DNA of 63,947 bases, filler included. It is 6 parts of 6 records of this genome, joined end to end, with 100 filler letters (N's around TTAATTAATTAA, not from the genome) between each part and the next. Parts side by side here need not be neighbours in the genome. Positions count along the whole stretch, not along the records: positions 1 to 14,462 come from SRR20825006_2492; 5 more parts are not named here. One strand, 5' to 3'. Position numbers and translations under genes: made by a program. Below are positions 1 to 27,367 of the stretch, one piece after another (the stretch's first letter is position 1; each line of letters begins with the position of its first letter). The notes beneath the pieces are model-generated. The model had not been told where the DNA came from. It saw only the letters and a program-made list of their open reading frames with translations, and made no database searches.

Positions 1-101
1 CACTCGATCGCTCAATTGAAAATTAGCGAAAAGTTTTTCTTGAAATTTTTTGGTCCTTGCATAATCTAAGATAAGGATGATTGTGCAGCGATTTAGTTTT
101 G

Positions 102-268
102 GATTTCGGAGTTTATTCACAATTTAGTTGTGCAACAGGCACATCGCCTAAAATGCATGCTCCATTCAAGCTTCGCACAACTATCCTATATGAAAACAAC
201 TATCTTTAGTATAAAACTTAATAACGTGTAAATGGCGCACGTCATTCTAGCCTTGAACGTTACCAAAC
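102..268 (+). repeat. Long intergenic element copy 1 (49-bp core 102-150; ends in GTTACCAAAC at 259-268)
   Basis: Core GATTTCGGAGTTTATTCACAATTTAGTTGTGCAACAGGCACATCGCCTA recurs ungapped at 5295, 6861 and 8865. Confidence 0.75.
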
Positions 269-281
269 ATAAAAAACAAGA

Positions 282-1970
282 ATGCAAATCAGAAAAATAT
301 TAATAATCTTCATCTCAATACTAACGCTTAAAAGTATTGCGGCAACTTATTATATATCTTCCAATACTGGTAATGATTTTAACTCAGGAACAACACCCGG
401 TTTAGCATGGAAAACATTGAATAAAATAAACTCATTTTCTTTTTCAGTTGGCGACTCTATTCTTTTTAAGCGAAATGAGATTTGGAGAGGACAATTGATT
501 CCTCAAAGTGGTTTTCCAGGCGCAAACAATTATTATGGAGCGTATTCTACGGGTGAAAAACCCAATATTTTAGGTTCTTTAAATTTTAGCGATATATCAG
601 ATTGGACAAATATTGGAGGGAATATTTGGAAATGTGATTCCATTTTTTCGACTGACATAGGAAATATCCTATTTGACAATGCCACGAGCGTAGGATTCAA
701 AAAGTGGAATTTAATCGAATTACAAAACCAAAATGACTTTTGGTTTGATTTATCATCTAACGAATTAGTGATATATTCTACATCTAATCCTGGAAGCATT
801 TATACAGAAATAGAACTTGCATTGCGAAAAGACATTGTTAACCATCAGAATAGAAGCTTTATTACGTTCGAAAATTTGAGTATTAAATATGGAGCTGCTC
901 ACGGTTTTGGCGGAGGCAATACATCAAATATTATTATTAATTCCTGTAACATCTCTTATATTGGCGGCGGCGACCTCAATATGGATGGTGCAATTAGATA
1001 TGGTAATGGTGTCGAATTTTGGGGGAATGCTTCAAATAATACGGTTTCAAAATGTAAAATATGGGAAATATATGATACTGGAGTTACCAATCAAAATCAT
1101 ACTACTCCAGTTTCACAAAATAATATCAAGTATCAAAATAACTTAATCTGGAATTGTGGTTTGTCTTCATTTGAATTTTGGTGCAAACCATCAATATCAA
1201 CAGTCAATGAAATCTATTTTGAAAATAACACTTGTTTATTTGCTGGCAGTGGCTGGGGAATACAACGGCCTGATTATTATGGAGTACACGTATTGATTAG
1301 TGGTAATATTGCTCAAACTGACACTGTTTATATTAGGAATAATATCTTTTTTGAGGCGCAACGAACTATATATGCATTTCACGACAGTGCAAATGGCCAA
1401 TATGAATTGGATTATAATGTAATGTATCAACCTACTGCTAATGATACATTATTTGCTTTTTTTCCTTCTAACCAAATTTATACTTATTTAGATTCCTCTT
1501 CATACACAAGTACATTAAATAAAGATTTAAACTCCGTATTTGGTGATCCCTATTTTACAAATTTATCAGGGTTAAATCTCACTTTACTAATCACGTCTAT
1601 CGCAATTGATGCAGGAACTAATACAAATATTATAGATGATTTTGAATATAACCCAAGACCAGTTAATGGAATATATGACATTGGAGCACATGAGTTCTCG
1701 GGACCATCAGCGATAACTGAAAATGAATATTTGAAAACAATAGTTGTCTATCCAAACCCAACAAACATTTCTTTCCGTGTCAGTTTTATTAATAAGGTAG
1801 GGGGGCTACTGAGTATATATGATATCATGGGACAAAGAATAATGTCCATAGACAACTATTCAAATAATCAAGAAATCAAAATAGATAATATGTCAAATGG
1901 TACGTACACGTTTACACTAAGTGATGATTCAGGAATTATTGAAACTGGAAAAATTATAGTCCGAAAATAA
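282..1970 (+). CDS. Secreted right-handed beta-helix protein with T9SS type A C-terminal sorting domain
   Basis: Signal peptide; YYISSNTGND...AWKTL start; beta-helix-like repeats; IDAG...DIGAHEF choice-of-anchor-like motif; C-terminal VYPNP...IYDIMGQ...GTYTFTL...KIIVRK. Confidence 0.8.
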   Translation: MQIRKILIIFISILTLKSIAATYYISSNTGNDFNSGTTPGLAWKTLNKINSFSFSVGDSILFKRNEIWRGQLIPQSGFPGANNYYGAYSTGEKPNILGSLNFSDISDWTNIGGNIWKCDSIFSTDIGNILFDNATSVGFKKWNLIELQNQNDFWFDLSSNELVIYSTSNPGSIYTEIELALRKDIVNHQNRSFITFENLSIKYGAAHGFGGGNTSNIIINSCNISYIGGGDLNMDGAIRYGNGVEFWGNASNNTVSKCKIWEIYDTGVTNQNHTTPVSQNNIKYQNNLIWNCGLSSFEFWCKPSISTVNEIYFENNTCLFAGSGWGIQRPDYYGVHVLISGNIAQTDTVYIRNNIFFEAQRTIYAFHDSANGQYELDYNVMYQPTANDTLFAFFPSNQIYTYLDSSSYTSTLNKDLNSVFGDPYFTNLSGLNLTLLITSIAIDAGTNTNIIDDFEYNPRPVNGIYDIGAHEFSGPSAITENEYLKTIVVYPNPTNISFRVSFINKVGGLLSIYDIMGQRIMSIDNYSNNQEIKIDNMSNGTYTFTLSDDSGIIETGKIIVRK

Positions 1971-1975
1971 ACGTT

Positions 1976-2035
1976 TGGTAACATTGTGTATATTTCATGC
2001 TCTTCGGGACACGCAGCATACACTAAACGTTATGG
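1976..2035 (+). repeat. attC-like 60-bp imperfect palindrome
   Basis: TGGTAAC-attGTGTAT...ATACAC-taaac-GTTATGG: AAC/GTT ends, inner GTGTAT/ATACAC arms, starts 5 nt after a stop codon. Confidence 0.7.
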
Positions 2036-2067
2036 CGAATTGAAGAAAACAACCAAAAAATAGAACT

Positions 2068-2739
2068 ATGTTAATAACGTATCTAATATTACTCCTAACT
2101 GCAATTATCTTTAGATTTTTACATTTTCCGGGAACAGGTTTGATTTTTGTTGTTTCACCCTTATTTCCGTTCATTGACATAATAATTCAATTAATTCGTG
2201 AAAAAGGTGATAAAGAAACAAGGCTTTTATCATCAATTAGTGTTCTTCTGCTATCCCTTTTCTTTTTGTTTAAGTTCTTATATTGGCCAGGGTATAGTTT
2301 GTTATTTTGGATTGCTATCACTGCTGTAGCAATATTTATTTTTCGATTTTTACAGAAAAAAATCCAGTTTAATGTTCGATTCTTTATAACTAGTTTGTTA
2401 TTTCTTTTCGCAGTTTTTAACTTTTCAATTAAAGGTTCAGATTTTAGATTAACATATCTATTAGAAGATCCATTTAACCCTTCTGAAGTCATTCCCCATT
2501 TCTACATCCAATCATTAGCTTATGAATATTATTTGGAGGGAGATTATGATAAGGCAGAAAAATTAATCCAACGAAATATAAATCATATTACTGATTTAAC
2601 CCTTGAAAAAAATGTGCCACAATATTTACAAGAAGTGGATAAACAAAATTTAGAAATTTCAATAAAAGATTTGAACGATATTCATAATCGTAGTTGGACT
2701 AATTTCGTTCCACTTTATAGAGAAGATCGACAGAACTAA
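2068..2739 (+). CDS. Membrane protein (two GldL N-terminal-like FxxxxxPG hairpins, TPR-like C-terminus)
   Basis: Several hydrophobic helices; FRFLHFPG and FKFLYWPG motifs; LAYEYYLEGDYDKAEKLIQR is TPR-like. Confidence 0.55.
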   Translation: MLITYLILLLTAIIFRFLHFPGTGLIFVVSPLFPFIDIIIQLIREKGDKETRLLSSISVLLLSLFFLFKFLYWPGYSLLFWIAITAVAIFIFRFLQKKIQFNVRFFITSLLFLFAVFNFSIKGSDFRLTYLLEDPFNPSEVIPHFYIQSLAYEYYLEGDYDKAEKLIQRNINHITDLTLEKNVPQYLQEVDKQNLEISIKDLNDIHNRSWTNFVPLYREDRQN

Positions 2740-2806
2740 AAAAAAGTGGCGCACAATTACACTCAAGAGAAGTGGCACATTGCCTGCAGCATAACCGTTA
2801 ATAGTA

Positions 2807-3262
2807 ATGATGAATACAACAAAACATGTGATACGAATCCTAGTAATGAGTGTACTACTCGTAGCATGTGGTACATCTGACAAAATCGTTTCTTTTAAGA
2901 AGGAATCTTCACAAACGGGGATATATGAATTTGACCCAAAGGGAACAACTCATAAAGTGCTTGACAATGATTCTACTACTTATACACTAAAATCGAAACC
3001 ATCCATCACCATTGAAAAATTTGAATCGCTGGAAATTTCAGATGAATGCTATGCGGGAGAAATTTGTATTTGCTTTAAATTTAATGAAGAAGGAACTAAA
3101 GAATATACAGCGTTGACCAAAAGAAATTTAAACGAAAAAATTTTTTACGTAATAGATGGTGTGGTAATTTCAGACCCGAATGTTATGGGAGTTATTAATG
3201 CTGGTATAGGTCAATTTCCCATCAAAGAAAAATACTTTGACTCTTTGTTTGTTGTAAAATGA
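2807..3262 (+). CDS. Lipoprotein with SecD/SecF P1 head-like domain
   Basis: Lipobox LVAC; ICFKFNEEGTKEYTALTKRNLNEKIFYVIDGVVISDPNV resembles the SecD head subdomain. Confidence 0.6.
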   Translation: MMNTTKHVIRILVMSVLLVACGTSDKIVSFKKESSQTGIYEFDPKGTTHKVLDNDSTTYTLKSKPSITIEKFESLEISDECYAGEICICFKFNEEGTKEYTALTKRNLNEKIFYVIDGVVISDPNVMGVINAGIGQFPIKEKYFDSLFVVK

Positions 3263-3379
3263 AAATGTTACTTACACGCACTTCGATGAAAGCAACTCTA
3301 AGTTCTCAACAATTGCATTCGATAGAATGCGTCACTTCGCCTAGTACGAACCGTTAGCAAATATTAAGCCTATCACCAG

Positions 3380-3922
3380 ATGACACCGATACAGAAAAAA
3401 CTAAATAAGCACCATGCGGAAAAGCTCTATTCTCGAATAACTAGAAGCTTTGGTGATTCTAGTGAAATATCGACCGGATTCATTTTGAAAATTTCCGACA
3501 CTTTGATTTTACTTCAAGAGAGCGATGAATTTAGAATTTTAGGGTATCAAATTATTCCAATAAACACGATTTCTCACGTTCGATACAATAACAATGATAG
3601 AACGTATCATCGAATATTGAAAAAAGAAGGGTTACTAGAATTTGTTGGCTTAAAATATGACATTGACTTAACAAGTTGGAAATCTGCCTGTCAAGGAGTT
3701 AAAAAAACCAAGTTGACAGTAATATCAGAATGTGAACATCCTGACCACGAATACTTCTGTATTGGAGAGTTAATGCGTGTTAATCCAAAGTCAATATCAA
3801 TTAGATATTTTAATGCCGCTGGAAAACTAGATGAAAAGAACACCACTCATGCCTTTAATGACATCACAAAATTAAGTTTTGACGATCGTTACGCAAACGT
3901 ATTTTCGAAGTACACTAAATAA
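3380..3922 (+). CDS. Hypothetical protein (internally two-domain, small beta-barrel-like)
   Basis: 180-aa ORF preceded by GTTAGCAAAT box at 3353-3362. Confidence 0.55.
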   Translation: MTPIQKKLNKHHAEKLYSRITRSFGDSSEISTGFILKISDTLILLQESDEFRILGYQIIPINTISHVRYNNNDRTYHRILKKEGLLEFVGLKYDIDLTSWKSACQGVKKTKLTVISECEHPDHEYFCIGELMRVNPKSISIRYFNAAGKLDEKNTTHAFNDITKLSFDDRYANVFSKYTK

Positions 3923-3958
3923 GAATTGACTGAGAACCAAGTATAGCTAGAAGAGAGA

Positions 3959-4414
3959 ATGAAAATAGTTGATCAAATATACAATCAAATCAAAATGGCT
4001 GTGAAAAGTCTGGAATATCTTGAGTTAGGAAATATTGATCATATAAATTTGTTGTACCCGCTACAAAAACTTGAATATGAAGAATGGGCGGAGATGCATG
4101 GAATCCTTCAAGACTTGACACAAGATGAATTGGGATTAATTGCTAACTCCTTAGTGGAAATAAAAGACAATAAAATTTCCAATTATGATACAGGTGCAAT
4201 GTATGCCTTCATATTCACAATTTCTAATGATTTCGTTGCTGAGTGTCTGCTGGAAAACTTTGATTTTATTGACAATAACCTACCAAAAGATGTTGAGTTA
4301 ATTGACGAATTACTGATTCGACTTAAAAACCTCGATGGAGCAATGAAAAGTAATATGGATTATACGTCTAAATATTCTTTGATTTATAAACTCTATAATG
4401 AAGCAGTTTGTTAA
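3959..4414 (+). CDS. Hypothetical acidic helical protein
   Basis: 151-aa ORF; stop codon lies inside a degenerate inverse-core-like box (TTTGTTAAG 4407-4415). Confidence 0.5.
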   Translation: MKIVDQIYNQIKMAVKSLEYLELGNIDHINLLYPLQKLEYEEWAEMHGILQDLTQDELGLIANSLVEIKDNKISNYDTGAMYAFIFTISNDFVAECLLENFDFIDNNLPKDVELIDELLIRLKNLDGAMKSNMDYTSKYSLIYKLYNEAVC

Positions 4415-4546
4415 GACGTTCTATACTCCAGCACCGATTTTCTCATCGAGAATCTGTCTTTTCGTATGGAAAAAATCATAATTTTATAGGAACGATTTTC
4501 GCTAGCGCCGTGGCATATTTGTGGTTGTTATCGGTAACGACCCAAT

Positions 4547-5248
4547 ATGAAAACTACGTTCAATTACTTACTGTTACTCCTTATCGCTTTTTCTTGTAAT
4601 CAAAGTCAAGAGGAAGGTGATTTTTTATATGATCCTACCGTTCCGTATCCATTATTTGATCCTGGTGATTTTTGGCTGGATAGCTTTGATGAGAGAGGTC
4701 TTCAAAATGCAAGTGTTTACAACGATGACCTTTATTGTAATACAATTGGTGGTTTCGGAGAGGATAATTATTTATACTGTTTTAGCTTAAGTAATGGAAC
4801 AGTTAAATGGCGAATGCCTGTCAAAGCCTTTTCAACCCAACCTATTACAATAATTAATGACAACTTGATTTATTGCTCTTATTTAGGACAAATACAGGTA
4901 TTCGATAAATACGGTAACGAACTTTGGAGTGAACGTTCTTCTCTACCTTACGGTGGTCATTGGGCGGATAGCAGTGATTTAACAATAAAAATATCGACAC
5001 CGTACGGATCGAAAGTATCAATACACAATTTGAATGGTAAGAATAGCACGGTGGTAGAAAGTGAAAAAATAAAAAAGGATATTGCTAGATTTGGTGGCCG
5101 CGTGAATCATACAAATAAACAATATCAAGTGAACCATAAAAATTGGAATTACTCAATCGACATCTCTACTCCAGGCACCAGAAAGCACAGTGTGGTAATA
5201 AAAAAAATATCGATAACTTACGTAACCATTACACAACCTCTTCCCTGA
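4547..5248 (+). CDS. Lipoprotein with PQQ/BamB-like beta-propeller repeats
   Basis: Lipobox AFSC; LYCFSLSNGTVKW and IQVFDKYGNELW repeats. Confidence 0.65.
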   Translation: MKTTFNYLLLLLIAFSCNQSQEEGDFLYDPTVPYPLFDPGDFWLDSFDERGLQNASVYNDDLYCNTIGGFGEDNYLYCFSLSNGTVKWRMPVKAFSTQPITIINDNLIYCSYLGQIQVFDKYGNELWSERSSLPYGGHWADSSDLTIKISTPYGSKVSIHNLNGKNSTVVESEKIKKDIARFGGRVNHTNKQYQVNHKNWNYSIDISTPGTRKHSVVIKKISITYVTITQPLP

Positions 5249-5462
5249 GCAACAACTGATTTTGTTGTTTTTACCTTGTTTGATCTTTCGGTTAGATTCC
5301 AGAGTTTATTCACATTTTAGCTGTGCAACAAGCACAAAGGCTTAGAAAGCATACTGGTTTATGCCTCGTAAGATCAATTTTGGTTAGAAAACTATTCCTA
5401 ACTTTAAAATCAAATCTGGGTGAAAGATCCGCAGCACTTTCTGGCTTTAGTCGCTGTAGTGC
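5209..5462 (+). repeat. Long intergenic element copy 2 (core 5295-5343)
   Basis: Core matches copy 1 at 40/49 by manual count; the tail is also alignable to 151-259; begins ATCGATAAC and ends GCTGTAGTGC. Confidence 0.7.
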
Positions 5463-5485
5463 ATTTGAAAGAACAAACTAAAAAT

Positions 5486-6073
5486 ATGAAAGACTCTTTA
5501 GTTCATTTTATTTCACAGTTCGACAAATTTACCAACGAGGAAATTAATGCTATTGTGGAAAATACTCAATTAGAGAATTTCAAAAAAGGAACTACAATTT
5601 TAAGAGAAGGTGAAATCTGTACTAAATGCTTTTTTGTTATAGAGGGATGCCTTCGACAATATCAAATAGTCAATGGAGAAGAAAAGACGACAGCGTTTTT
5701 TTGTGAAGGAGAAGCTGCAGTTTTATATTCCAGTTACTTAGAAAAAAAGCCGTCAAAATATTATTTATCAACCATTGAAAACTCCATTTTAACCACAGGA
5801 ACTAGAACAGCAGAAAAGGAATTGCATAGGAAACATCCGAATCTTGAAAATTTGATAAACACTTTAATGCCTAACGATTATGCCAAGTCTCAAGAACATA
5901 TCGAATTACTGAGCCATCATAGTCCTGAAGAAAGATACCAGATAATTTTAAAGAACTATCCCAAGCTTCTCAATAGAATCCCTTTGCATTTAATTGCGAG
6001 TTATATTGGAGTTACTCCTGAATCACTTAGCAGAATCAGAAAGAGAATTTTGACAAAGGAAAAATCCGAATAA
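5486..6073 (+). CDS. Crp/Fnr family transcriptional regulator
   Basis: cNMP-binding region (FKKGTTILREGEIC...FVIEGCLR); HTH IASYIGVTPESLSRIRK; ATG at 5486 preferred to GTG 5420, which lies inside the repeat element. Confidence 0.9.
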   Translation: MKDSLVHFISQFDKFTNEEINAIVENTQLENFKKGTTILREGEICTKCFFVIEGCLRQYQIVNGEEKTTAFFCEGEAAVLYSSYLEKKPSKYYLSTIENSILTTGTRTAEKELHRKHPNLENLINTLMPNDYAKSQEHIELLSHHSPEERYQIILKNYPKLLNRIPLHLIASYIGVTPESLSRIRKRILTKEKSE

Positions 6074-6085
6074 ATTCAATTGCAA

Positions 6086-6493
6086 TTATGCCGGTTTAAT
6101 CCCTTTCTTGTAGAATCGCAAAAGGACAAACAGACATAGGAATCCAACTAAAAGTTCGACAAACAAAGCTATCTGAAGTGGTTCGCTTGGAAATCCATCA
6201 AATATAATACTCACTAAACGTGACAATCCATACGATAAATAGATTAAACAAGATAGCTGAATGGAATAGATTGTCAATTTAGAAAAAAAGGCTCCTAAAA
6301 AAATTATTATTCCACTAACTAACAATAGTCCGCTAGGAGCCCTAATTTCGCTTAGTAAATTAATATCATCTCCGAGATTGATACCTGCTGACGCCTCAAA
6401 AGCAACTGGAGAAAATAAGAGAGAATATCCAATTCCAGTCCCAATCATTCCAGAAATTATTAAAAGCGCCTTTGTAAATATGTTCTTTTCCAT
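6086..6493 (-). CDS. DUF4345-like membrane protein
   Basis: Four TM helices; SEIRAPSG and SRLVSIIFDGFP motifs. Confidence 0.7.
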   Translation of the reverse strand: MEKNIFTKALLIISGMIGTGIGYSLLFSPVAFEASAGINLGDDINLLSEIRAPSGLLLVSGIIIFLGAFFSKLTIYSIQLSCLIYLSYGLSRLVSIIFDGFPSEPLQIALFVELLVGFLCLFVLLRFYKKGIKPA

Positions 6494-6607
6494 TTTTGTT
6501 TAATTTATAGTTATGCAAATATCGAAGCGGAAAAGAAAAAAAACCTTGACTTAAGATAAGAAAGTAATCTTACAGAATTTCTAGACAAAAAAAGAAAGAA
6601 CAAAAAC

Positions 6608-6790
6608 ACACTACAATAAGGTGTATAAATTATAGCCAGTAAGCGCTAAAGGAAAGGACTGTGCTTATGTGCGAATACCGCTAAATTTTTAAATTCGACT
6701 TTTAAAATTGATAAGTTGAAAACAAACTATAAAAATTCGGCGGTGTATTAATCCGAGAAATTAGCGTCTTTTTACAGGCAACATTTCATT
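6608..6790 (+). repeat. Long intergenic element of a different sequence type (starts ACACTACAAT-aag-GTGTAT)
   Basis: Starts with an inverse-core-like box complementary (TGTAGTG core) to 5453-5462, followed by GTGTAT as in the 1976-2035 element; internal CCGCTAAATTTTT...AAAAATTCGGCGG imperfect palindrome. Confidence 0.5.
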
Positions 6791-6797
6791 TAAAGAA

Positions 6798-6970
6798 GCA
6801 CCTAACATTCGTCGTTGCACCTGTTTTCCTCTGAGTTACATCGTTTGGTCATTCCTTGTAGATCCCAGAGTTTGTTCACATTTTAGTTGAGAAACAGACA
6901 CATCGCCTATACCTCACGCCGAAAAATGCTATATTGGAGTCGACACAAAACTTAGTCCCAACCATTATAC
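6798..6970 (+). repeat. Long intergenic element copy 3 (core 6861-6909)
   Basis: Starts GCACCTAAC (RYYYAAC consensus); core matches copy 1 at 41/49. Confidence 0.7.
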
Positions 6971-6978
6971 AAAGCAGG

Positions 6979-8232
6979 ATGAAAATATTAATAATTACCA
7001 TTGTCTCAGCATTAGTGTTAGTAGGGTGCAGTAATGATGAAAAGGCCAAAGATCCGAATACAAGTATCGTGTCAGATAGTAGCAAATTTATTAGCCAACG
7101 ACATTTCCACGAAAAAAAATATGAAGGCTTTAATTTTAATTCTGAACAGGATTGGGATAACTTAAATAATATTTCTCAAGAAAAAATACTTCACCAAAAA
7201 GGGAACGTGCACCCTGATTTCCGCACATTTGGTTGGCACATATATTCCAATGGTTCTTCATGGAAAAATTACAACTTTTCCATGCTATGGGGTCTTTCTT
7301 ACTTTTCATATAGTATTCAACCAGAAACTGGAAGCTATAAAAGTATCCATCAATGGAAAACTACTGCTTTGATTGATAGTGCGAAAGCTTACAATTGTAA
7401 AGTATTCCTTTCAGTTTCTAATTTTGGAAGTGACAATAATGCTACTTTTTTGGAAAATCCAAAAGCCCAGAAAACGTTGATTGATAGTTTGTCCTATTTA
7501 TTGGCTCTGAGATCTGCAGATGGTATTAATATCGATTTCGAAGGAGTATCAAAAAAGAACAAAAAGGGTTTTACAAAATTTATCATTGAAATTTCAAAGA
7601 GACTAAAACAAGATAATGCAAACTACATGATATCCCTGTGCCTTTATGCGGAGGACTGGAACAATATTTTCGACATTGAAACCATTGATCCCTACGTAGA
7701 TTTTTACACATTGATGGGGTATGATTACTTTGGAGGATTCAGTAAAAGAACTGGACCAGTGACTCCTTTTAACAAGAGCGAAAAATTTGGAAATGGTTTA
7801 AAAACATCTATTCAATATTATCAAGATAAAGGTGTGCATTCGAATAAATTAATTGTTGGTCTTCCTTATTATGGTGCTGAATGGTACACCAAAGAATCTC
7901 AACCAGGTTCAATGGTTTCAAAATTTAGAGATCATCCACCTTATAATGCGATTAGAAAATTCTATATTGACTTATTAAATACTCCAGTAAAATTTGATTC
8001 CCTAAGTTCTTCAACGTACATAGTTGTGAAAGACAGTAGTAATAGCTATCGTCAACTTTTTTTCGAAGACAAAAAATCACTAGGGATTAAATATGATTGG
8101 ATCAAGGAAAATCAAATAAGTGGAGTTGGTATTTGGGCATTAGGTTATGATGATGGTTATTCTGATTTATGGGACTTGTTAAATGAAAAATTTTCAGAAG
8201 AACAAAATTCAACTGTGTATCACAAAAAATAA
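6979..8232 (+). CDS. Glycoside hydrolase family 18 (chitinase-like) lipoprotein
   Basis: Lipobox LVGC after ATG 6979; catalytic DGINIDFEG; LMGYDY; KLIVGLPYYG; GVGIWALGYDD. Confidence 0.9.
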   Translation: MKILIITIVSALVLVGCSNDEKAKDPNTSIVSDSSKFISQRHFHEKKYEGFNFNSEQDWDNLNNISQEKILHQKGNVHPDFRTFGWHIYSNGSSWKNYNFSMLWGLSYFSYSIQPETGSYKSIHQWKTTALIDSAKAYNCKVFLSVSNFGSDNNATFLENPKAQKTLIDSLSYLLALRSADGINIDFEGVSKKNKKGFTKFIIEISKRLKQDNANYMISLCLYAEDWNNIFDIETIDPYVDFYTLMGYDYFGGFSKRTGPVTPFNKSEKFGNGLKTSIQYYQDKGVHSNKLIVGLPYYGAEWYTKESQPGSMVSKFRDHPPYNAIRKFYIDLLNTPVKFDSLSSSTYIVVKDSSNSYRQLFFEDKKSLGIKYDWIKENQISGVGIWALGYDDGYSDLWDLLNEKFSEEQNSTVYHKK

Positions 8233-8379
8233 ACATTATATCTAAGCCTAGCGAACTCCGCGGCGAAGACGATAGATCTCAAACGGGAAATGATCACTGA
8301 GAAAATTGCAACTACTACGGAGAATTTTTATAATTTAATTTTAAATAAATTGACATCAAGATTAATCACTTTAAAACCG

Positions 8380-8790
8380 ATGAAACTAATTACAGCAACA
8401 TTTTTTATACTTATTATTTCCGCATGTTTTGGACAAAATCAATTGTTGGATAGTTGCGGTGTAGACAGTAATCTCTTCCTTAATAAATATGAATCTCACT
8501 ATTTAAATTCTGTTTTTATAGATGAAAATTTTGACTTCGAAAACAAGAAAATTGAATTTAGATTATCCAATTACGGACATTTCTCCTCTAATAAAATGGC
8601 ATATTTTAAGGATGTGAAAGATTGGTTGGGAAAAGGTTCTAGAATTCACGAAGACATAATAATTCTAACCGAAGAAGAAAAAACAAGATTTGGAGATTAT
8701 GACGCAATAATAATCAGTTGGTCGAAAGTACCTGTCACGGGAAAAGCAAGAAACAAATGCTTAAAGAATTTATCCAAAATCAAAAGCTGA
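8380..8790 (+). CDS. Secreted hypothetical protein
   Basis: Signal-peptide-like MKLITATFFILIISACFGQ from ATG 8380. Confidence 0.55.
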   Translation: MKLITATFFILIISACFGQNQLLDSCGVDSNLFLNKYESHYLNSVFIDENFDFENKKIEFRLSNYGHFSSNKMAYFKDVKDWLGKGSRIHEDIIILTEEEKTRFGDYDAIIISWSKVPVTGKARNKCLKNLSKIKS

Positions 8791-8864
8791 AAACCATCCA
8801 AAAACGGGTTCAAAAGTGCTGCTACGAATATACTTTTGGCGCTTAACTTGTTGGATCTTTCATA

Positions 8865-8984
8865 GATTTTGGAGTTTGTTCGCATTTTAGTCATGTAACA
8901 GTCGCTTTGCCTGTGCTTAATACCGAAAAGGGTACATTCGAGAGTCGGCACGAAAGTATCACCGCAAATCGTTAACAAACATTA
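8865..8984 (+). repeat. Long intergenic element copy 4 (core 8865-8913; ends GTTAACAAAC 8971-8980)
   Basis: Core matches copy 1 at 37/49; tail CCGAAAAG...GAGTCGGCAC shared with copy 3 and with about 10844-10872. Confidence 0.65.
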
Positions 8985-8994
8985 AAACTAAATT

Positions 8995-9468
8995 ATGAAA
9001 ACAGTCATTGGATTACTTTTAACGATCATCTTATTTTCATGTAATCAGGGAGCTGATAAAACGACTACTGAAGTTCAATTATCTGAAGAAAATGAAAGTA
9101 TTCAAACGAATACGGCCTATGAGCATGAAAAGTTTGTAGCAATAAATCCTGACGAAATAAATCAGCTATTAAAAGGAAAAAATGAGGATTTATCTGCTCA
9201 AGATGTGATTAAATTATATTATCCTAATGAGATAAACTCAGGTGAAGGAAATGAGAAAATAGAAATCACCGAAAAAAATAGTGAAAACGGAAATACATTA
9301 GTAACGCTAATTCATGATAATCTACTAGACGATTCTCAAAGAGGAGAAAAATATATTATGGAATTGAAAAGAGTGAAAAATAAATGGACCGTAGTTTCTA
9401 TAAAAAAGAATTGGAAGTGTTGGGATGGGAGAGGGCATACTGATTGGGGAATTGAACTATGTGAATAA
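8995..9468 (+). CDS. Hypothetical lipoprotein
   Basis: Lipobox LFSC; DDS..G..Y and C-terminal WKC..GRGH..W....C motif. Confidence 0.65.
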   Translation: MKTVIGLLLTIILFSCNQGADKTTTEVQLSEENESIQTNTAYEHEKFVAINPDEINQLLKGKNEDLSAQDVIKLYYPNEINSGEGNEKIEITEKNSENGNTLVTLIHDNLLDDSQRGEKYIMELKRVKNKWTVVSIKKNWKCWDGRGHTDWGIELCE

Positions 9469-9469
9469 C

Positions 9470-9600
9470 GTTTGCTAACGCGGATATTCGAAACGTTGGG
9501 GAAAGCTAAACCTTGTTTTTAACGACACTATCCCGTTAAGTGTGTAAACCGAAAGTTTAATATTCCAAATCATTACTTTTATATTTTAAACGTTTGTTAG
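9470..9600 (+). repeat. attC-like intergenic element
   Basis: GTTTGCTAAC right after the stop codon, complementary to 8971-8980 at 9/10; ends TAAACGTTTGTTAG just before the next ATG. Confidence 0.55.
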
Positions 9601-9612
9601 AATTGACTCAGA

Positions 9613-9993
9613 ATGGAATTGGACTCTTTATCAGAATATTATTACGACAAGAAGGTGAACGGTATGGACTTTTCGGAAATTCGTAGTGAACTGAAAGCTA
9701 AAGGACTCGATGACTCTGAGATAAGAATTATTATAGGCTCAATTGATAATAAACTTTTGATGAGCATCCGACAAAACAATGATAGATCACAAGTCAATAC
9801 GACGAAAATCATTGGAATTTTTCTCGTAGTAGGCGGAACAATTATCACGGTAGGAACATCTACTGGCTGGATCCAAATGGGCAATTATTTTATTTTCGCT
9901 TATGGACCAATCTTGGGCGGATTAACCATGATGGCGACCTCAAGAAGTGGACGGTCTAGTATTTTTAATCGCAACCAAAAATCCAGAAGATAA
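9613..9993 (+). CDS. Hypothetical membrane protein
   Basis: Soluble N-terminus followed by two TM helices (FAYGPILGG motif). Confidence 0.6.
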   Translation: MELDSLSEYYYDKKVNGMDFSEIRSELKAKGLDDSEIRIIIGSIDNKLLMSIRQNNDRSQVNTTKIIGIFLVVGGTIITVGTSTGWIQMGNYFIFAYGPILGGLTMMATSRSGRSSIFNRNQKSRR

Positions 9994-10094
9994 AACAAGA
10001 TTATTTTGAATAACAGATTAGTACGAACTTTTCCGTCTTAGATTAATTTCGCTTGTAAAAAAAAAAGACTCATAAATGCAAATTTTAAAATTTA

Positions 10095-10286
10095 ATGGAC
10101 GAACAAACTTTAATCAGAATCCAGAAAATTGCTGAACTCTCTGGAATGACCGCTAATGAAAGGCTATATGCAAGCGGTCTCATGGATGAGTTTGACAAAG
10201 CCATTAATGATGATAAAATTAGGGCTAAACAAATATTAAGAGGATTGAGAGTTGACGAATCTTCGATTGAAAAAATAGTAAAATAA
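10095..10286 (+). CDS. Small hypothetical protein
   Basis: 63-aa ORF with GMTANERLY..GLMDEFD motif; AT-rich leader; co-oriented with the array. Confidence 0.55.
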   Translation: MDEQTLIRIQKIAELSGMTANERLYASGLMDEFDKAINDDKIRAKQILRGLRVDESSIEKIVK

Positions 10287-10352
10287 ACTCCCTATAAAGC
10301 CAATGAAACAACTGTCGGGAAGTTAAATTTTAAAGAAAAGTGAAGCAGAAGA

Positions 10353-10814
10353 ATGAATAAAATGATTAAATGCCAAAATTGCGATAAGAATTTCATTCCA
10401 GATGAAAAGCAACAAGAATTTATTAATTCCTCGGTAAAAAAGGGAATGACTTTTGTAATGTTTGAATGTCAAAATTGTGGACTAGGGTTTGGCTTCAATC
10501 CTAGCGGTGGTTCGGTACCATCACCTGAACTAGCGCCTTTAAGAACACCAATTTCTGGTTCACACGGATTTATATCATATATTGACGATAATTCTGAAAA
10601 GTTCTATGGCTGCGGAGAGACTGGTGCGATCTGGAAGAAACTAGAAAATCTATTCAGAGACATTGAAAAAATAATTGTAAAGTATCCTCATCGAGCTCGG
10701 TTTTATCTTAAGAAAGATGGCAACTGGATTGCTAATCCAACTGAACCAGAAAACATTTATGAATTGATTGACAGTGAGTCTTATACGGAGTTAAGTTTCT
10801 ACGAACAAGACTAA
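10353..10814 (+). CDS. Hypothetical protein with N-terminal zinc ribbon
   Basis: CQNC...CQNC pair; stop codon inside GACTAAC (10809-10815). Confidence 0.6.
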   Translation: MNKMIKCQNCDKNFIPDEKQQEFINSSVKKGMTFVMFECQNCGLGFGFNPSGGSVPSPELAPLRTPISGSHGFISYIDDNSEKFYGCGETGAIWKKLENLFRDIEKIIVKYPHRARFYLKKDGNWIANPTEPENIYELIDSESYTELSFYEQD

Positions 10815-11069
10815 CATTACAGTAATCTGCGCTAAGTTTTACTCCGAAAAGTGGTATGTCCGAGAGTTAGCAAAGGGCTTCGATGCCACTCATTATCTGC
10901 GATCTGATGAGAACACTTAGAAAAAAATACACTTAATAAATGAGGGTCACATAATTACAGGTTAAAAAATCCAAAAACGATACAGACTTCTCACAAAAAA
11001 ACTCAAACAATTTAAAGGTTACTAAAAAGCATCTATTTTAAAAGCATGTTCCGAACAAACCCAACCGAT

Positions 11070-12329
11070 TCACTCCTTAGACAACTTTCCAATCACAATT
11101 TTCCGGTTATTATCAAAATTCAATCTGTAAAAATATGTACCGCTAGATACGTCAGTGAGCTCAACCTCAGGAAGATCTTCAGTAATCATTTCAACACTTA
11201 CGATCGTCCCAGTAATAGAATACAATGTAAACTCGCACGACTTGAAATCCCCGAATGGAATAGTTACTCGATCAAAAAATGGGTTTGGAAATAAAGCAAA
11301 TTTTAAAAATGCGTCATCATTTTCTGAAATACTATTCCAAGTGATTCCGCACCCATCAGAAGAAAGTAAACTAGTCCTAATGGTTGTCAAAGCAGCGATC
11401 ATTCTGTTTTTCTGCCCCAAGGTGAAATGATCCGCACACTTCGTATAATCCATGTAATTTGTAAGATCGTCAGGTTGATCTCCCAAACCACCGAGGGCAA
11501 CAGGTCTGAACGGATTATTTGTCGACTGATCATCGGCATCCGAAAGGCACGAATTACTCGTTTGACAATCATTATTCGGATAGCTGACGGGGGGTGTATC
11601 ACAGACATTATCATTATCAACCGTGCAATCGTTGTTTAAACAGCCACCCTGAAAAGTATGATACAATCCTAGATAGTGACCTACTTCGTGCTCAAACAAA
11701 CCTGGGTAGTAAAAAAAAGTATCCGCACTATTCATATAGGCGTGATACAGAAAAACGCCGTCCATATAATACCCATTACTGTTTGGGAAAAATCCCCAAC
11801 CTGTACGAGCACTGCCTGCGACAAACAGATTTTTCACCAAATAAACATTCAAATAATCCTTGGTTTTCCAATGATACAACCTACAAATACTATCCATAAG
11901 ATCAGTTGAAGTAGACAAACCATTACTATTTATATAAGAGTACATGTGTGAAAACTCAGAGTAATCACGCGTGATTCCAGTCGTAGGCAAACCATTCGTA
12001 TCCTTCTCAGCTAGGCAAAAATTAATATCTACATCCACACCATCTGGAGTTTGAAACGAACCACTATTCGCAAAACGCTCATTGAGTTCAGAAATCCAAT
12101 TAATCACCACAGAATCAGGTACATTTTCCGCACCTCCCTGATGAACTAAGTGAAAAACGACAGGTACATTATACGTTGATTTCGGCGAATCCGAGAGAGA
12201 ATGAAGCTTACTTTTGAACGCCGAATTTTCCCATTGGTCGTTCTTTTCTACACCACAAAATGAAGATTGCGCAGGAGAAACAAAGGCATAAAAAGCCATT
12301 AAAGTCAGTGAAATGAGTTCCTTTTTCAT
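11070..12329 (-). CDS. M43 (pappalysin/ulilysin-like) zinc metalloprotease with T9SS sorting domain
   Basis: Cys-switch CG; VPVVFHLVH; HEVGHYLGLYH zinc motif; NYMDY Met-turn; FT.GQ..RM; LFPNPF C-terminal domain. Confidence 0.9.
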   Translation of the reverse strand: MKKELISLTLMAFYAFVSPAQSSFCGVEKNDQWENSAFKSKLHSLSDSPKSTYNVPVVFHLVHQGGAENVPDSVVINWISELNERFANSGSFQTPDGVDVDINFCLAEKDTNGLPTTGITRDYSEFSHMYSYINSNGLSTSTDLMDSICRLYHWKTKDYLNVYLVKNLFVAGSARTGWGFFPNSNGYYMDGVFLYHAYMNSADTFFYYPGLFEHEVGHYLGLYHTFQGGCLNNDCTVDNDNVCDTPPVSYPNNDCQTSNSCLSDADDQSTNNPFRPVALGGLGDQPDDLTNYMDYTKCADHFTLGQKNRMIAALTTIRTSLLSSDGCGITWNSISENDDAFLKFALFPNPFFDRVTIPFGDFKSCEFTLYSITGTIVSVEMITEDLPEVELTDVSSGTYFYRLNFDNNRKIVIGKLSKE

Positions 12330-12456
12330 AGAATAAAGACGACTCCCTGTCCATCAAAGTTGTTCCATCGAACTTAGGCTCTCAAAGTCCAACAATGATC
12401 ATCTAAAAAACGCTATATTTAGAATTCAAAAAATTTAACCCTAGAAACAGAAGCAA

Positions 12457-13248
12457 ATGCCCTTTCGAATACTCCTTTTTTTCCTTTTCAGCTCAACACT
12501 TTCTTTTGCACAAACAACCTCCAACGACAGTCTCTTCATGCAAGGTGGTGAACTCTTCAGGGTCAGATACACTGGAGTGGAGGGGTTCTATAAAACATAC
12601 GACGACTTTCTGAACGAACGAATCACAGACACCGTAGAATTCAAATTAGACAACTACGTCCCAGGTGCCGACAACCGATTGTCAATAGTCACAAAAAAAA
12701 GCAATGGAAAAGACAGCTATGAACTTGTAAATTTCGCCGAATCCAAAATTCAATACTGGGGAGCGCGCATCAAAGTGTATTCAGACGGCACGAAGTATGT
12801 CGATTTTCGCTTTCATGACTCGAAACTGCTGGAAATCCTACTCATGGGAGACATCATTGTGTACTCAACTGGAGGGTTACACATCACGCACACTGGATCA
12901 TTAGACGACAGATCACCCAACGTGCATAAAAAGCACATTAGAGAAATGCAGCTCTTGAAAGTCGGAACCAATTTCACAGGCAAACACCGCGTGTTTCTGG
13001 AGAATGTGGAATTAGGTATAGGATCAAACGTTGATAAAATCTATTATCACAAAGAAACCGTCTATTTTCAAAAAGGACTTGAAGGAGAACTCATCAAATA
13101 CGCTAAGCCAAAAGATGCCCTGGAGGTGCTTGGTGATTGCCCAAAAGTGCAAGAATCATTGAAAGCAGCCAAGCCCAAAGGAAAAATTGAACGCATCAAA
13201 GAATTGTACATGCACATCGACATCTACAACCATTGCTTGCAGGAGTGA
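12457..13248 (+). CDS. Secreted hypothetical protein
   Basis: Signal peptide ending SFA-Q; 263 aa. Confidence 0.6.
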   Translation: MPFRILLFFLFSSTLSFAQTTSNDSLFMQGGELFRVRYTGVEGFYKTYDDFLNERITDTVEFKLDNYVPGADNRLSIVTKKSNGKDSYELVNFAESKIQYWGARIKVYSDGTKYVDFRFHDSKLLEILLMGDIIVYSTGGLHITHTGSLDDRSPNVHKKHIREMQLLKVGTNFTGKHRVFLENVELGIGSNVDKIYYHKETVYFQKGLEGELIKYAKPKDALEVLGDCPKVQESLKAAKPKGKIERIKELYMHIDIYNHCLQE

Positions 13249-13400
13249 TAACTGGTTTTTTCGCCCTTACCTGTTCAAAAAAACTTCTCAATTGTATGAT
13301 TACAAAATTGTGCAATCCTTCTTTTGATATGCGCAAAACCGTGTATTTCACAACTTCCTACACCGATAGCAATAGTCGACTGAGGCTCTCGAGGTAAATT

Positions 13401-13898
13401 CTACCGATAATCTTCAATTGCGAATTTATGAGGAATCGCGTAGGTTTGCCCTTTTTCTTTAGAGACAAATACAAGGTCTTCACAATAAACTAAACCATCA
13501 CCAATTACTCTTCCTTTCAAGGTTATTCTAACCTTTTCTTTTTCATCTTGCAACGCGTCCAATTTGTACTTTTTGATCTTCGAATAATCTCTTTTGTCAA
13601 AGTAGATTCTAATAATAGAATCATTATCTAATTTTAGCTGCACGTAAGGATTATATAAAAGATCTTCTTTTTTAAGAACGTCATAAATTCTCAAAATACT
13701 TTTTGTCGTACCGTCCAACGAATCCCTGTTTTCCAATTTTGCCAGACCATCAACCCATTTTACAACCTCTTTCGGTTGTTTATACAAACTCCCATAACGC
13801 CAAAGACCAAAGTACAAATCACCTTGAAGTGTATCAATTTGTCCAAAAGAAGAGCTTGAGAATAAAATTGCAAAGGAAAACAGTAGTATTTTTTTCAT
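13401..13898 (-). CDS. Secreted hypothetical protein
   Basis: Signal peptide ending SFG-Q; 165 aa. Confidence 0.6.
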   Translation of the reverse strand: MKKILLFSFAILFSSSSFGQIDTLQGDLYFGLWRYGSLYKQPKEVVKWVDGLAKLENRDSLDGTTKSILRIYDVLKKEDLLYNPYVQLKLDNDSIIRIYFDKRDYSKIKKYKLDALQDEKEKVRITLKGRVIGDGLVYCEDLVFVSKEKGQTYAIPHKFAIEDYR

Positions 13899-14015
13899 TC
13901 TTGTAATTAAGGAAGAATTCTATTGAAAAAAGGAATACTTCTTAATCTCATGGTGAATTCAAATTTACCTGACGAAAATAATTCTTAAATTAGAATAACC
14001 AACCACATCTACTAC

Positions 14016-14462: not shown

Positions 14463-14562
14463 NNNNNNNNNNNNNNNNNNNNNNNNNNNNNNNNNNNNNN
14501 NNNNNNTTAATTAATTAANNNNNNNNNNNNNNNNNNNNNNNNNNNNNNNNNNNNNNNNNNNN
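14463..14562. other. Artificial contig linker
   Basis: N-run + TTAATTAATTAA (stops in all six frames) + N-run. Confidence 0.98.
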
Positions 14563-14563
14563 A

Positions 14564-15079
14564 CTCACAGTAACTGTTGGTGGTTCATCTGTCGGTTCAA
14601 TCGACTATGGCGCTGGCACAACTTCTGAAGACGTGATCACAGCCTTGAACGCAATTGATGGTGTTACCGCCTCCACCGACGGGACCACAATTTCGATCAC
14701 ATCCGAAAATGGTGACATTGTCATTGACGACACCGACACAACAGCTGACCTAGCCACCCAAACTGGTTCGGGCTATGTTGCCGGTTCATTCGACAGCGAC
14801 ACCTCAATCAACGACTCTTTGACAGCGTTGAATACTGCCTTGAACACATTGCGGTCTCAGGCGTCTACATTCGGTACAAACCTGACTGTGGTCGAAAACC
14901 GTCAAAACTTCACAACTCGTTTGGTCAACACTTTGGAAGAAGGTGCAGGCAAATTAACATTGGCTGACACCAACGAAGAAGGCGCGAACTTGCTGGCGTT
15001 GCAAACACGTCAACAGCTCTCCTCTACGTCACTTTCTTTCGCCTCTCAGGCAGATCAGAACGTGTTGCGTTTGTTCTAA
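14564..15079 (+). CDS. fliC: Flagellin, 5'-truncated (copy 1)
   Basis: Flagellin C-terminus LADTNEEGANLLALQTRQQL...VLRLF; frame open back to the contig edge. Confidence 0.92.
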   Translation, partial: LTVTVGGSSVGSIDYGAGTTSEDVITALNAIDGVTASTDGTTISITSENGDIVIDDTDTTADLATQTGSGYVAGSFDSDTSINDSLTALNTALNTLRSQASTFGTNLTVVENRQNFTTRLVNTLEEGAGKLTLADTNEEGANLLALQTRQQLSSTSLSFASQADQNVLRLF

Positions 15080-15112
15080 GGATAAAGAATTTAGTATTGC
15101 GTACTTTATCGC

Positions 15113-15149
15113 AATGGGCGGTGTGCGGATCATGCACCGCCCATTTTTT
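15113..15149 (+). terminator. Rho-independent terminator
   Basis: AATGGGCGGTG...CACCGCCCATT hairpin + T-run. Confidence 0.8.
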
Positions 15150-15179
15150 ATTATTATATATAGTCACTTACCCTTTTCA

Positions 15180-15194
15180 TTAACCGCTCATTAA
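15180..15194. promoter_or_regulatory. CtrA-box-like site upstream of flagellin 2
   Basis: TTAA-CCGCTCA-TTAA = TTAA-N7-TTAA. Confidence 0.7.
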
Positions 15195-15257
15195 CCGCCT
15201 GAAACATAATGTAACCGCGTCCAGAATGGACATTTCGGGGGATAATCAGAAGATTAT

Positions 15258-16421: not shown

Positions 16422-16447
16422 TAGGTTGAAAAATATAACAAAATTAC

Positions 16448-16474
16448 AAGGCGAGCTTCGGCTCGCCTTTTTTT
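16448..16474 (+). terminator. Rho-independent terminator
   Basis: AAGGCGAGC-TTCG-GCTCGCCTT + T-run. Confidence 0.85.
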
Positions 16475-16529
16475 ATTGCCTGAACTATTTTTCGCATTTT
16501 GCAACAAAATCCGCATTTTGCACGGCCAG

Positions 16530-16544
16530 TTAAACTTCGATTAA
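16530..16544. promoter_or_regulatory. CtrA-box-like site upstream of flagellin 3
   Basis: TTAA-ACTTCGA-TTAA. Confidence 0.7.
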
Positions 16545-16609
16545 CCATGTTCCGGCATGATCATAAGTGCCCCAGAATCGGGCCTTAGAAACCATGAAGG
16601 AATAGAACT

Positions 16610-17722: not shown

Positions 17723-17762
17723 GACGCAACATAAATCAGCTCATCGAGCTATTTCTTCAAAG

Positions 17763-17791
17763 AAGGCGTCGAATTTTTCGGCGCCTTTTTT
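17763..17791 (+). terminator. Rho-independent terminator
   Basis: AAGGCGTCGAA...TTCGGCGCCTT + T-run. Confidence 0.8.
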
Positions 17792-17808
17792 ATTTATCCA
17801 TCATGAAT

Positions 17809-17903
17809 AGGCAATTTTTGCCGCGCAAACTGTGGAAAATCGCACCAACCGACCCAATTTGAACCATTCTGTTAATATGCGTTAACCTTTCGGTAAGGTT
17901 AAC
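17809..17903. promoter_or_regulatory. Regulatory region of flagellin 4: ftr-like GGCAATTTTTGCC and CtrA-like TTAA cluster
   Basis: AGGCAATTTTTGCCG 17809-17823; TTAA-N7-GTAA 17882-17896 within palindrome GTTAACCTT-N5-AAGGTTAAC 17881-17903. Confidence 0.5.
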
Positions 17904-17966
17904 AATTCATTGTCATCAAGAATCGTGGCAAGACTCTATTAACAACTCCAGGAAGGATGGTTCGCG

Positions 17967-19076: not shown

Positions 19077-19118
19077 GATCAAACTTAAAGCGTTCCGCGT
19101 AACCTTTAAGAGGACGAG

Positions 19119-19902: not shown

Positions 19903-19912
19903 TTCACTTCAC

Positions 19913-20284: not shown

Positions 20285-20394
20285 AGGTCAAACTCAACTT
20301 TGCTCAATTTTTTAAAGCAAAGCCGAGTTTGGCCACCCTTGCAAATCTAATTTAACTTTGCGGTCACAATGCCGCAGCGGTCAAAATTATGCCG

Positions 20395-21894: not shown

Positions 21895-21906
21895 ATCTCA
21901 ATCCCC

Positions 21907-25255: not shown

Positions 25256-25260
25256 ATTTT

Positions 25261-27361: not shown

Positions 27362-27367
27362 ATTATT

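Follow-up and report, generated by a model that had tools for sequence, protein, structure and literature searches.

The DNA studied here, referred to as the window, is a stretch of 63,947 nucleotides (nt), and its positions 102 to about 10900 probably hold a partly eroded cassette-array segment of an integron-like gene-capture system of the Flavobacteriaceae. The segment lies on contig A (1–14462), one whole draft contig that is strain-specific and has a G+C content (GC) of 31–41% per kb. It carries 14 open reading frames (ORFs; g1 to g14 in order, within 282–10814), 13 of them on the + strand, and their products are unrelated: five matched a Pfam family above cut-off, three gave a weak match below threshold and six gave nothing at E ≤ 0.01. 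An earlier note on this sequence had described 14 unrelated genes, 13 of them co-oriented, as an integron-like array built by a tyrosine-recombinase system. ORF calls and Pfam scans bear out the description of the genes. The interpretation was right in kind, being upheld by the arms of an intact site in the window, by matches of independent arm models, by a complete system in the nearest genome (G001) and by homologues of g11 that adjoin sites in other genomes. It was overstated in extent, as we find three convincing cassettes.

Going by G001, an intact system would consist of a gene for a 368-residue Xer/IntI-like recombinase, a short attI-like hairpin on the same strand and then the cassettes. 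Each cassette would comprise one or more ORFs and an imperfect hairpin of ~140 nt with the order ...AAC, spacer, GTRTAT ... ATAYAC, spacer, GTT.... Cassettes would circularize and, the system presumably being active today, insert through crossing over at, or beside, the G|TT of the 3′ box, which is what the footprint suggests. Insertion would leave the TT-box (R′) 5′ of the gene and the complementary ...AAC box (R″) 3′ of it. In the window this footprint survives for g1, g7–g8 and g11, with one site intact, one reduced to its 5′ arm and one weak; the remaining junctions would be decayed sites or may never have been sites.

Cassette footprints and hairpin sites in the window

The boxes and sites of the segment are the following.

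259–270, + strand: R′ box of the g1 cassette, GTTACCAAACAT, 11/12 complementary to 1971–1982
1971–2040, + strand: site S1, a short intact hairpin (R″-L″...L′-R′), 57.7 bits with the covariance model as one of its training members
2774–2800, + strand: composite motif G.CAC...AACCGTTA 5′ of g3, not recovered by the independent 3′-arm model
3331–3361, + strand: composite motif and R′-like box GTTAGCAAA 5′ of g4; 3353–3361 is 7/9 complementary to 4407–4415, marginal
4527–4535, + strand: R′-like box GTTATCGGT 5′ of g6, 8/9 complementary to 5209–5217, marginal
5453–5462, + strand: R′-like box GCTGTAGTGC of the g7–g8 cassette, 7/10 complementary to 6608–6617, with the core TGTAGTG in common
6606–6816, + strand: site S2, of the long type, well preserved in its 5′ arm and centre but degenerate in its 3′ arm; covariance model match at 6606–6712, 21.1 bits
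8947–8984, + strand: composite motif and R′ box GTTAACAAACATTA of the g11 cassette; 8971–8984 is 12/14 complementary to 9466–9479
9468–9603, + strand: site S3, weak but full-length, AACGTTTG at both ends, 13.6 bits, E 0.38
10846–10900, + strand: degenerate copy of the motif module, found by alignment, with no gene behind it; estimated right edge of the array

To the right of about 10900 the genes are of mixed orientation. All five box pairs quoted in the earlier note were found, at 11/12, 12/14, 8/9, 7/9 and 7/10 complementary positions. Out of about nine junction pairs the footprint is convincing at three cassettes, namely g1 (11/12), g11 (12/14) and g7–g8 (7/10, with a 5′ arm of the family type directly after). 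Two pairs are marginal, and the partner box of g6 (5209–5217) falls inside the g6 ORF, near its 3′ end. The remaining genes have no pair, so that the claimed cross-gene footprint stands for three cassettes and is not shown for 14. Similarly, the picture of intergenic elements framed by an AAC box at the stop codon and a GTT box before the next start is correct in that some starts are preceded by a GTT box, but the AAC box at the stop is clear for g1 and g11 only.

Complementarity was scored for 10-mers anchored at nine junction boxes, paired either within the same cassette or in all other ways. Same-cassette pairs averaged 7.67 versus 6.13 (standard deviation 0.94) for the other pairings, with a permutation p of 0.00014 that is optimistic because two of the nine boxes, C4 and C5, had been chosen for their complementarity. 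Pairs of at least 8/10 made up 4/9 of the same-cassette set and 6/72 of the others. Without anchoring, a test over 13 genes gave p = 0.03. Flanks that are at least 10/12 complementary occur at 7 of the 99 ORFs of the whole window, so a value of 10/12 alone is not rare. The short motif CGTTA is intergenic in six of its seven copies on contig A, of which 19% is intergenic.

One box sequence, ACGTTTGNTAAC, has four copies on contig A that form inverted pairs flanking g1 and g11; the window as a whole contains five matches against 1.33 expected, and 2 of 100 shuffles also gave five. Phase-variable inversions are common in Bacteroidota, and one family of inverted repeats around two unrelated genes is also what invertible segments would look like, with the 12–14-nt repeats around g1 and g11 serving as targets of a DNA invertase that flips the genes relative to outside promoters. 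We consider this highly improbable. The downstream copy of the repeat coincides with a hairpin site's 5′ box, the relatives described below display the logic of cassettes and not of inversion, and the boxes travel with g11 into different arrays elsewhere. No invertase gene was found on contig A, and the contigs of four runs (X1–X4) contain one orientation only, although circles, inversions and rare variants are not visible in data examined as contigs.

The sites belong to a family, for which we built a covariance model, R1, from 10 aligned sequences (nine sites from four other genomes and window 1971–2040). Both arms are conserved across all of them, and RNAalifold places 18 pairs, 10 with compensatory changes, that form an AAC/GTT stem, an unpaired spacer, a GTRTAT/ATAYAC stem and one further stem. 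Sites of the family measure ~140 nt and some ~200 nt. When run on contig A with filters off, R1 matched S1, S2 and S3, and all further matches were noise; on the whole window no other contig matched at E < 0.1. The last 12 nt of S1 are the R′ box of the following cassette. The S2 match (6606–6712) has an E value of 0.009 on contig A and 0.041 on the whole window. Part of S2 (6678–6737) shares 83% identity with a portion of a ~200-nt site at another locus (L142:14822–15027), from which it follows that S2 is of the long type, with a probable 3′ end at about 6816. Its R″ box, ACACTACAAT, pairs with the box before g7 and so joins g7 and g8 into one cassette. S3 folds no better than shuffled sequences (z −0.38).

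Independent support came from hidden Markov models (HMMs) of the two arms, built from 22 sites with the window sequences excluded. The 5′-arm model matched 6613–6642 (E 0.0074, its best match in the 64-kb window) and 1975–1992 (E 0.54), and the 3′-arm model had its best match in the window at 2017–2039 (E 0.25). These matches are the top ones in 64 kb and fall at the predicted places, each being weak alone.

A second recurrent element, the 67-nt repeat D1, was found by repeat search in four copies.

100–166, + strand: D1 copy 1, 5′ of g1
5293–5359, + strand: D1 copy 2, 5′ of g7
6859–6925, + strand: D1 copy 3, 5′ of g9
8863–8929, + strand: D1 copy 4, 5′ of g11

None of 100 shuffles gave four matches, and D1-like pieces occur on at least five other contigs of the runs that hold contig A. 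The repeat always lies 3′ of a site remnant and 5′ of the first gene of a gene group. It has no consensus structure (three predicted pairs, none with compensatory changes), and a 76-nt D1 query against 61 relatives returned two chance-level matches only. The pattern GAGTTTRTTCRCAWTTTAG, derived from D1, was found in 24 stretches of genome_contigs and 55 of metagenome_contigs; none had similarity beyond the pattern, and all were set aside as chance. D1 is probably a separate, regulatory element that is conserved in sequence yet unstructured. The long, atypical intergenic elements are site remnants plus this unrelated repeat, and they look oversized because D1 sits in them. The earlier suggestion that the sites exceed the usual size of attC is therefore not borne out. 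A hairpin that resembles a terminator and has a T run (5249–5275, GCAACAA...TTGTTGTTTTT) lies directly 3′ of g6 and 5′ of D1 copy 2, which suggests that D1 opens a new transcription unit there.

The composite motif G.CAC-N11-18-AAYC?GTTA has four copies in the 64-kb window, all on the + strand and located 5′ of g2, g3, g4 and g11. An upstream motif 11–40 nt before the starts of g1–g4 and g11 would also be expected if contig A were an ordinary strain-specific island in which the motif is a promoter of the extracytoplasmic function (ECF) sigma type, D1 is regulatory, and the box pairs and S1 are relics or chance. The spacing of G.CAC, 15–18 nt and CGTTA presumably resembles that of ECF promoters, exported and membrane proteins are numerous among the products, the independent 3′-arm HMM misses the motif copies, and D1 has no fold. 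We nonetheless judge an island of this kind unlikely. The footprints of g1, g11 and g7–g8 match cassette geometry exactly, and the best independent arm matches in the whole window occur where that geometry predicts them. Furthermore, g11 is a cassette in the arrays of other genomes, the nearest genome has a complete system, and Pfam scans found no sigma or anti-sigma gene on contig A. Whether the motif G.CAC...CGTTA might be a site's 3′ arm was considered as well; this reading finds no support from the independent arm HMM and is kept as a candidate beside the promoter reading. Sigma-54 and Bacteroidetes −33/−7 promoters were dropped by eye as readings of D1 and the motif, given their spacing.

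Two short identities involve the junctions of this region. The 19-nt junction AACCGTTAGCAAATATTAA before g4 (3349–3367) is identical at 19/19 positions to L124:4891–4909, where it opens a g11-type cassette in a Tenacibaculum metagenome-assembled genome (MAG), and a copy at L129 matches at 18/19. The start of g2 (2059–2080) and the end of g11 including its stop codon (9450–9471) are identical at 20/22 nt, which may be chance or a recombination scar.

Complete arrays and their recombinase in other genomes

Four later contigs of the window match parts of G001 at 99–100% DNA identity, and contig A is absent from it (zero DNA matches for window 1–14000). At locus L155, G001 has a gene for a 368-residue tyrosine recombinase (L155:1345–2451) followed by 12 same-strand R1 matches (E ≤ 1e-8) over ~11 kb. 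Taking ten of the sites in order, the R′ box of one and the R″ box of the next are at least 9/12 complementary at 9/9 junctions (mean 10.4), versus means of 6.6 for pairs within the same site and 6.9 for all other pairs. Six of these sites fold with z scores of −3.84, −2.03, −3.12, −4.50, −2.38 and −1.26. At both G001 loci, a short hairpin ending in a GTT box lies directly 3′ of the recombinase gene's stop codon, and the GTT box shows complementarity to the first site's R″ box; hairpin and box together are a putative attI-like site. The recombinase is co-oriented with the cassettes. The same layout, a recombinase followed by co-oriented sites, is present in genomes G337 and G340, and G337 holds at least 108 R1 sites in many scattered clusters.

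Two other elements lie 3′ of the G001 array, a tRNA-like match (L155 13694–13792, 45.4 bits) and a group II intron (L155 14817–16636; intron domains D1–D4 80.4 bits, domain V 60.1 bits, with a 416-residue ORF between). Integrons are known to harbour group II introns that target attC sites.

Eight loci were found to carry homologues of g11: three in Tenacibaculum (two of them in one MAG) and one each in Ascidiimonas, Balneola, Flavobacterium, a Spirochaetota MAG and a Bacteroidetes MAG. By eye, a GTTA/ATTA-type box is retained 5′ of the start in five of the eight, and an ...AAC box at the stop in six. R1 sites adjoin the homologue in L124, L125 and L128. L124, from a Tenacibaculum MAG, is a textbook array in which the g11 homologue is followed by a 61-bit site. 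Its matched cassette boxes, GTTATATGCA/TGCATATAAC and GTTGGCGGTAAT/ACTACCGCCAAC, each surround their own gene, and its sites fold end to end on the bottom strand (z −4.34, −3.59 and −1.48). No known RNA family covers the R1 sites in L155 or L124.

Insertion sequence elements lie within or next to sites of the Tenacibaculum array. An ISL3 transposase splits one site (L124 7555–8775), an IS1595-type gene shares the cassette of the g11 homologue (L124 4972–5985), and several DDE transposases are found at the upstream end of the array (L141 6710–13379). The cargo there (L124 440–4763; L141 1927–4323) includes genes for an AAA_13 ATPase, for a ThsB-like TIR protein and its TPR-S partner, and for the R subunit of a type I restriction system. 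Such defence-type cargo is also reported for sedentary integrons.

Judged from its sequence, the G001 recombinase is no canonical IntI. With the integron-integrase model TIGR02249 (cut-off 265) it reaches 185.5 bits and with NF040815 (cut-off 220), which is described as 'site-specific tyrosine recombinase/integron integrase', 187.1 bits, compared with 152 bits for XerD and 149 bits for XerC. Its alignment with the IntI model is interrupted between positions 178 and 241; the protein has ~20 residues there, and we take model stretch 179–240 to be the location of the IntI-specific extra segment. By sequence, its best-scoring relatives of solved structure are an archaeal XerC-like (XerA-type) protein, 4a8e (120 bits), and VchIntIA, 2a3v (105 bits). 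Homologues number in the thousands and are labelled only 'tyrosine-type recombinase/integrase' or 'XerD'; one of them, P0117, carries the label 'Bacteroidales bacterium' and is 65% identical. G337 has an array-head recombinase with 41% identity to the G001 type.

The segment could alternatively be the remnant of a classical integron, a cluster of attC sites lacking integrase (CALIN), with ordinary attC sites served by a true IntI elsewhere in the genome or in trans. The layout of the sites is that of attC, with AAC/GTT cores, an unpaired spacer, a second stem and bulged bases. In a sample of the phylum, TIGR02249 matched above its cut-off in 113/401 genomes, and weak R1-type matches were seen in 5/10 of the IntI-bearing genomes tested. 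However, nearly all of the 113 lie in other classes, where canonical integrons seem common, with one IntI-positive genome within the same class and 0/29 in the family. A canonical IntI was found in 0/301 family genomes at E ≤ 1e-40, and none above cut-off in G001 (best TIGR02249 match in a six-frame search 120.6 bits, cut-off 265) or in five genomes with boxed g11 homologues. In addition, the arrays of G001, G337 and G340 start beside a different, co-oriented recombinase. The idea of a classical integron accordingly fails on two counts, as no IntI was found in relatives and the recombinase at the array head is co-oriented and without the stretch of the IntI extra segment; we regard it as decidedly unlikely for the window.

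We return to the integron-like system proposed for the family. Its distribution was examined in 151 genomes of the family of G001, from 150 genera, with 21 candidates scored per genome. R1 sites at E ≤ 1e-6 are present in 129/151 genomes and 128/150 genera, and the G001-type recombinase at E ≤ 1e-80 in 12/151 genomes, a threshold that undercounts array-head recombinases because that of G337 is only 41% identical.

Several observations weigh against assigning the window segment to this system. The sites (129/151) are far commoner than the G001-type recombinase (12/151), so that many arrays may be orphans, or another enzyme may act on R1 sites. Pfam scans of 16 ORFs found no recombinase on contig A (the g17 and g18 ORFs are also without a family), excision or insertion events are not observable in contig-only run data, and contig A could stem from another organism of a mixed sample, as the next contig of the window, contig B, clearly does. 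The sole intact site of the window, S1, also trained model R1. At least four junctions lack a footprint (after g2, g3 and g10 and around g12–g14), and for g2 no R″ box was found downstream, the best candidate reaching 8/10. Eight intergenic elements, folded as the earlier note had delimited them, are no more stable than shuffles (z −1.14 to +1.07), and the same holds for D1-bearing elements, also as refined segments. Finally, the motif upstream of g2, g3, g4 and g11 is unseen by the arm HMM built without window sequences and may be something else.

Genes of the probable array and the setting of contig A

The genes of the segment are as follows.

282–1970, + strand: g1, 562 residues, secreted protein sorted by the type IX secretion system (T9SS); Por_Secre_tail E 7.4e-10
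2068–2739, + strand: g2, 223 residues, membrane protein
2807–3262, + strand: g3, 151 residues, lipoprotein-like; SecDF_P1_head E 2.2e-8
3380–4414, + strand: g4 (180 residues) and g5 (151 residues), 36 nt apart, no family
4547–5248, + strand: g6, 233 residues, lipoprotein-like; weak PQQ_2 match only
5486–6073, + strand: g7, Crp/Fnr-type regulator; cNMP_binding E 3.2e-9
6086–6493, − strand: g8, DUF4345 membrane protein, the sole minus-strand gene
6979–8232, + strand: g9, GH18 glycosidase lipoprotein; Glyco_hydro_18 E 4.1e-37; longest ORF from 6934
8380–8790, + strand: g10, small exported protein; longest ORF from 8290
8995–9468, + strand: g11, 157 residues, lipoprotein, a cassette gene in other genomes
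9613–10814, + strand: g12 (126 residues), g13 (63 residues) and g14 (153 residues), co-oriented, with no recognizable sites or boxes

The five Pfam families above cut-off are the T9SS tail, a SecDF_P1-head-like domain, the cNMP-binding regulator, DUF4345 and GH18. The genes without boxes (g2–g6 in part, and g12–g14) may also have entered as cassettes. Homologues of g1 (61–77% identity) occur in three Flavobacteriaceae MAGs, in a different context in each. Homology between the window and L051 spans 259–1975; at 81% identity its limits are indistinguishable from ordinary intergenic decay, and it was not used as evidence.

Relatives of g3 and g14 were absent from the genome_contigs search, and g6 had zero homologues among 301 family genomes. 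Together with the absence of contig A from G001, these three genes make the point for hypervariability; their missing relatives fit orphan cassette genes but test nothing. None of the 14 products matched an immunity family at Pfam E ≤ 0.01, which is weak evidence, as many of them are small, exported and without an assigned function.

The window is a concatenation and not a single molecule. Its draft contigs are joined by N44-TTAATTAATTAA-N44 linkers (14463–14562, 27448–27547, 37566–37665, 47539–47638 and 56478–56577), and features are not to be read across the joints. Contig A is present whole and identical (14,462 nt) in runs X1–X3, from which the DNA studied here may derive. Run X4 contains 59% of the sampled contig A words as low-depth fragments with gaps in cover, which are no evidence for a different cassette content. 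The single joint in the run contigs, 8829 to 114, is a further copy of a repeat.

The four later contigs that match G001 encode T9SS-sorted proteins, so the organism is a Bacteroidota. Contig B (14563–27447) looks like it comes from another, alphaproteobacterial-type organism, and the assembly is then mixed or contaminated; this is because its GC is 45–55% over most of its length and it encodes flagellins, FlbT, FlaF, FlgK and an FlgE-like protein, beside homoserine O-succinyltransferase. Window 1–8000 had no blastn match in the plasmid database PLSDB. No known RNA family reached its gathering score within the window, and a weak SAM-III match at 13439–13536 was the only RNA-family match on contig A at E ≤ 1. 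The final 30 nt of the third contig (37536–37565) are part of a high-copy tandem repeat of G001, which has more than 45 matches in several clusters, a start-to-start spacing of 84–273 nt and the core CACAGTCATGTCGACCAACGGGAGACATCTCAT (L158, G001:C1:3370300–3371500).

Relation to known systems and meaning

The closest published system is rAID-1 (recombinase-associated acquired interbacterial defence) of gut Bacteroidales. The available text of Ross et al. (10.1101/471110) describes clusters with an XerD-like recombinase at the 5′ end, co-directional genes and repeats between the genes that are 'reminiscent of' integrons, found in 226/423 genomes. The recombinase-first, co-directional layout recurs in G001, G337 and G340, both systems are widespread, and the window itself has at least two co-directional genes (13/14) with repeated intergenic modules. 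On the other hand, rAID-1 is described from gut Bacteroidales whereas the arrays here are from marine Flavobacteriaceae, and hairpin sites, AAC/GTT cores and cross-cassette complementarity of boxes do not feature in that part of its description. Its cargo is given as orphan immunity genes; we found no immunity family among the 14 products, and the cargo of L124 includes TIR/ThsB-type genes. No recombinase is seen in the window. The criteria in the same text ask for a 5′ XerD-like recombinase with 44% or more identity to the reference from B. fragilis and for a GC that is skewed relative to the genome, at most 41%. The array part of contig A has a GC of 31–35% per kb, with no contrast to the other Bacteroidota contigs of the window (26–39%).

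Several features are shared with sedentary chromosomal integrons and CALINs. They include co-oriented, mostly orphan ORFs; imperfect hairpins framed by AAC...GTT that have an unpaired spacer and second stem; a 5′ box complementary to the box 3′ of the cassette's own gene; a putative attI-like site adjoining the recombinase gene; and insertion sequence elements and a group II intron in or beside sites. The differences concern the enzyme, which scores 185.5 bits against the 265-bit TIGR02249 cut-off, has ~20 residues for model positions 179–240 and is co-oriented with the cassettes, and the number of sites, which exceeds 100 per genome in many scattered clusters in G337. The recombinase may be nearer to an 'integron-like' subgroup of simple tyrosine recombinases, in which, according to the portion of Smyshlyaev et al. 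2021 (PMC8138268) that treats it, the IntI insertion is not fully conserved. It scores higher on integron-integrase and XerA/integron models than on XerD/XerC, but its best solved relative is the archaeal XerA-type 4a8e, ahead of VchIntIA.

Integrons have been held to be tied to IntI and nearly absent from Bacteroidetes; the available passages on IntegronFinder 2.0 (10.1101/2022.02.28.482270) list In0 elements and one complete integron, in Salinibacter, and reviews, as far as their accessible text goes, name Bacteroidota among integron-bearing phyla without detail. We found no description of arrays like these in Flavobacteriaceae in the open full-text literature, a scope that leaves aside subscription journals and supplements such as those of the IntegronFinder and rAID-1 papers.

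Beyond the window, a broader reading would be a Flavobacteriaceae-wide analogue of integrons, with ~140-nt sites in ~85% of the genera sampled and up to more than 100 copies per genome, G|TT recombination by Xer-like enzymes without the segment held to define IntI, and array turnover between strains with 99% identity elsewhere. We consider the case for this broader claim to be evenly balanced. If true, cassette capture with folded sites would be independent of the IntI-specific domain, and the published rAID-1 clusters from gut Bacteroidales would represent one branch of a system that spans the phylum. The window would be an eroded example, for which L155 in G001 provides the intact reference array. 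The integron footprint and site architecture stand here beside a different recombinase, in a family where we found none described and where sites occur in 129/151 genomes. This raises the question of whether the extra domain of IntI is needed to recombine folded single-strand sites, and the question of how marine flavobacteria assemble the large, strain-specific sets of orphan, exported and defence genes that they carry.

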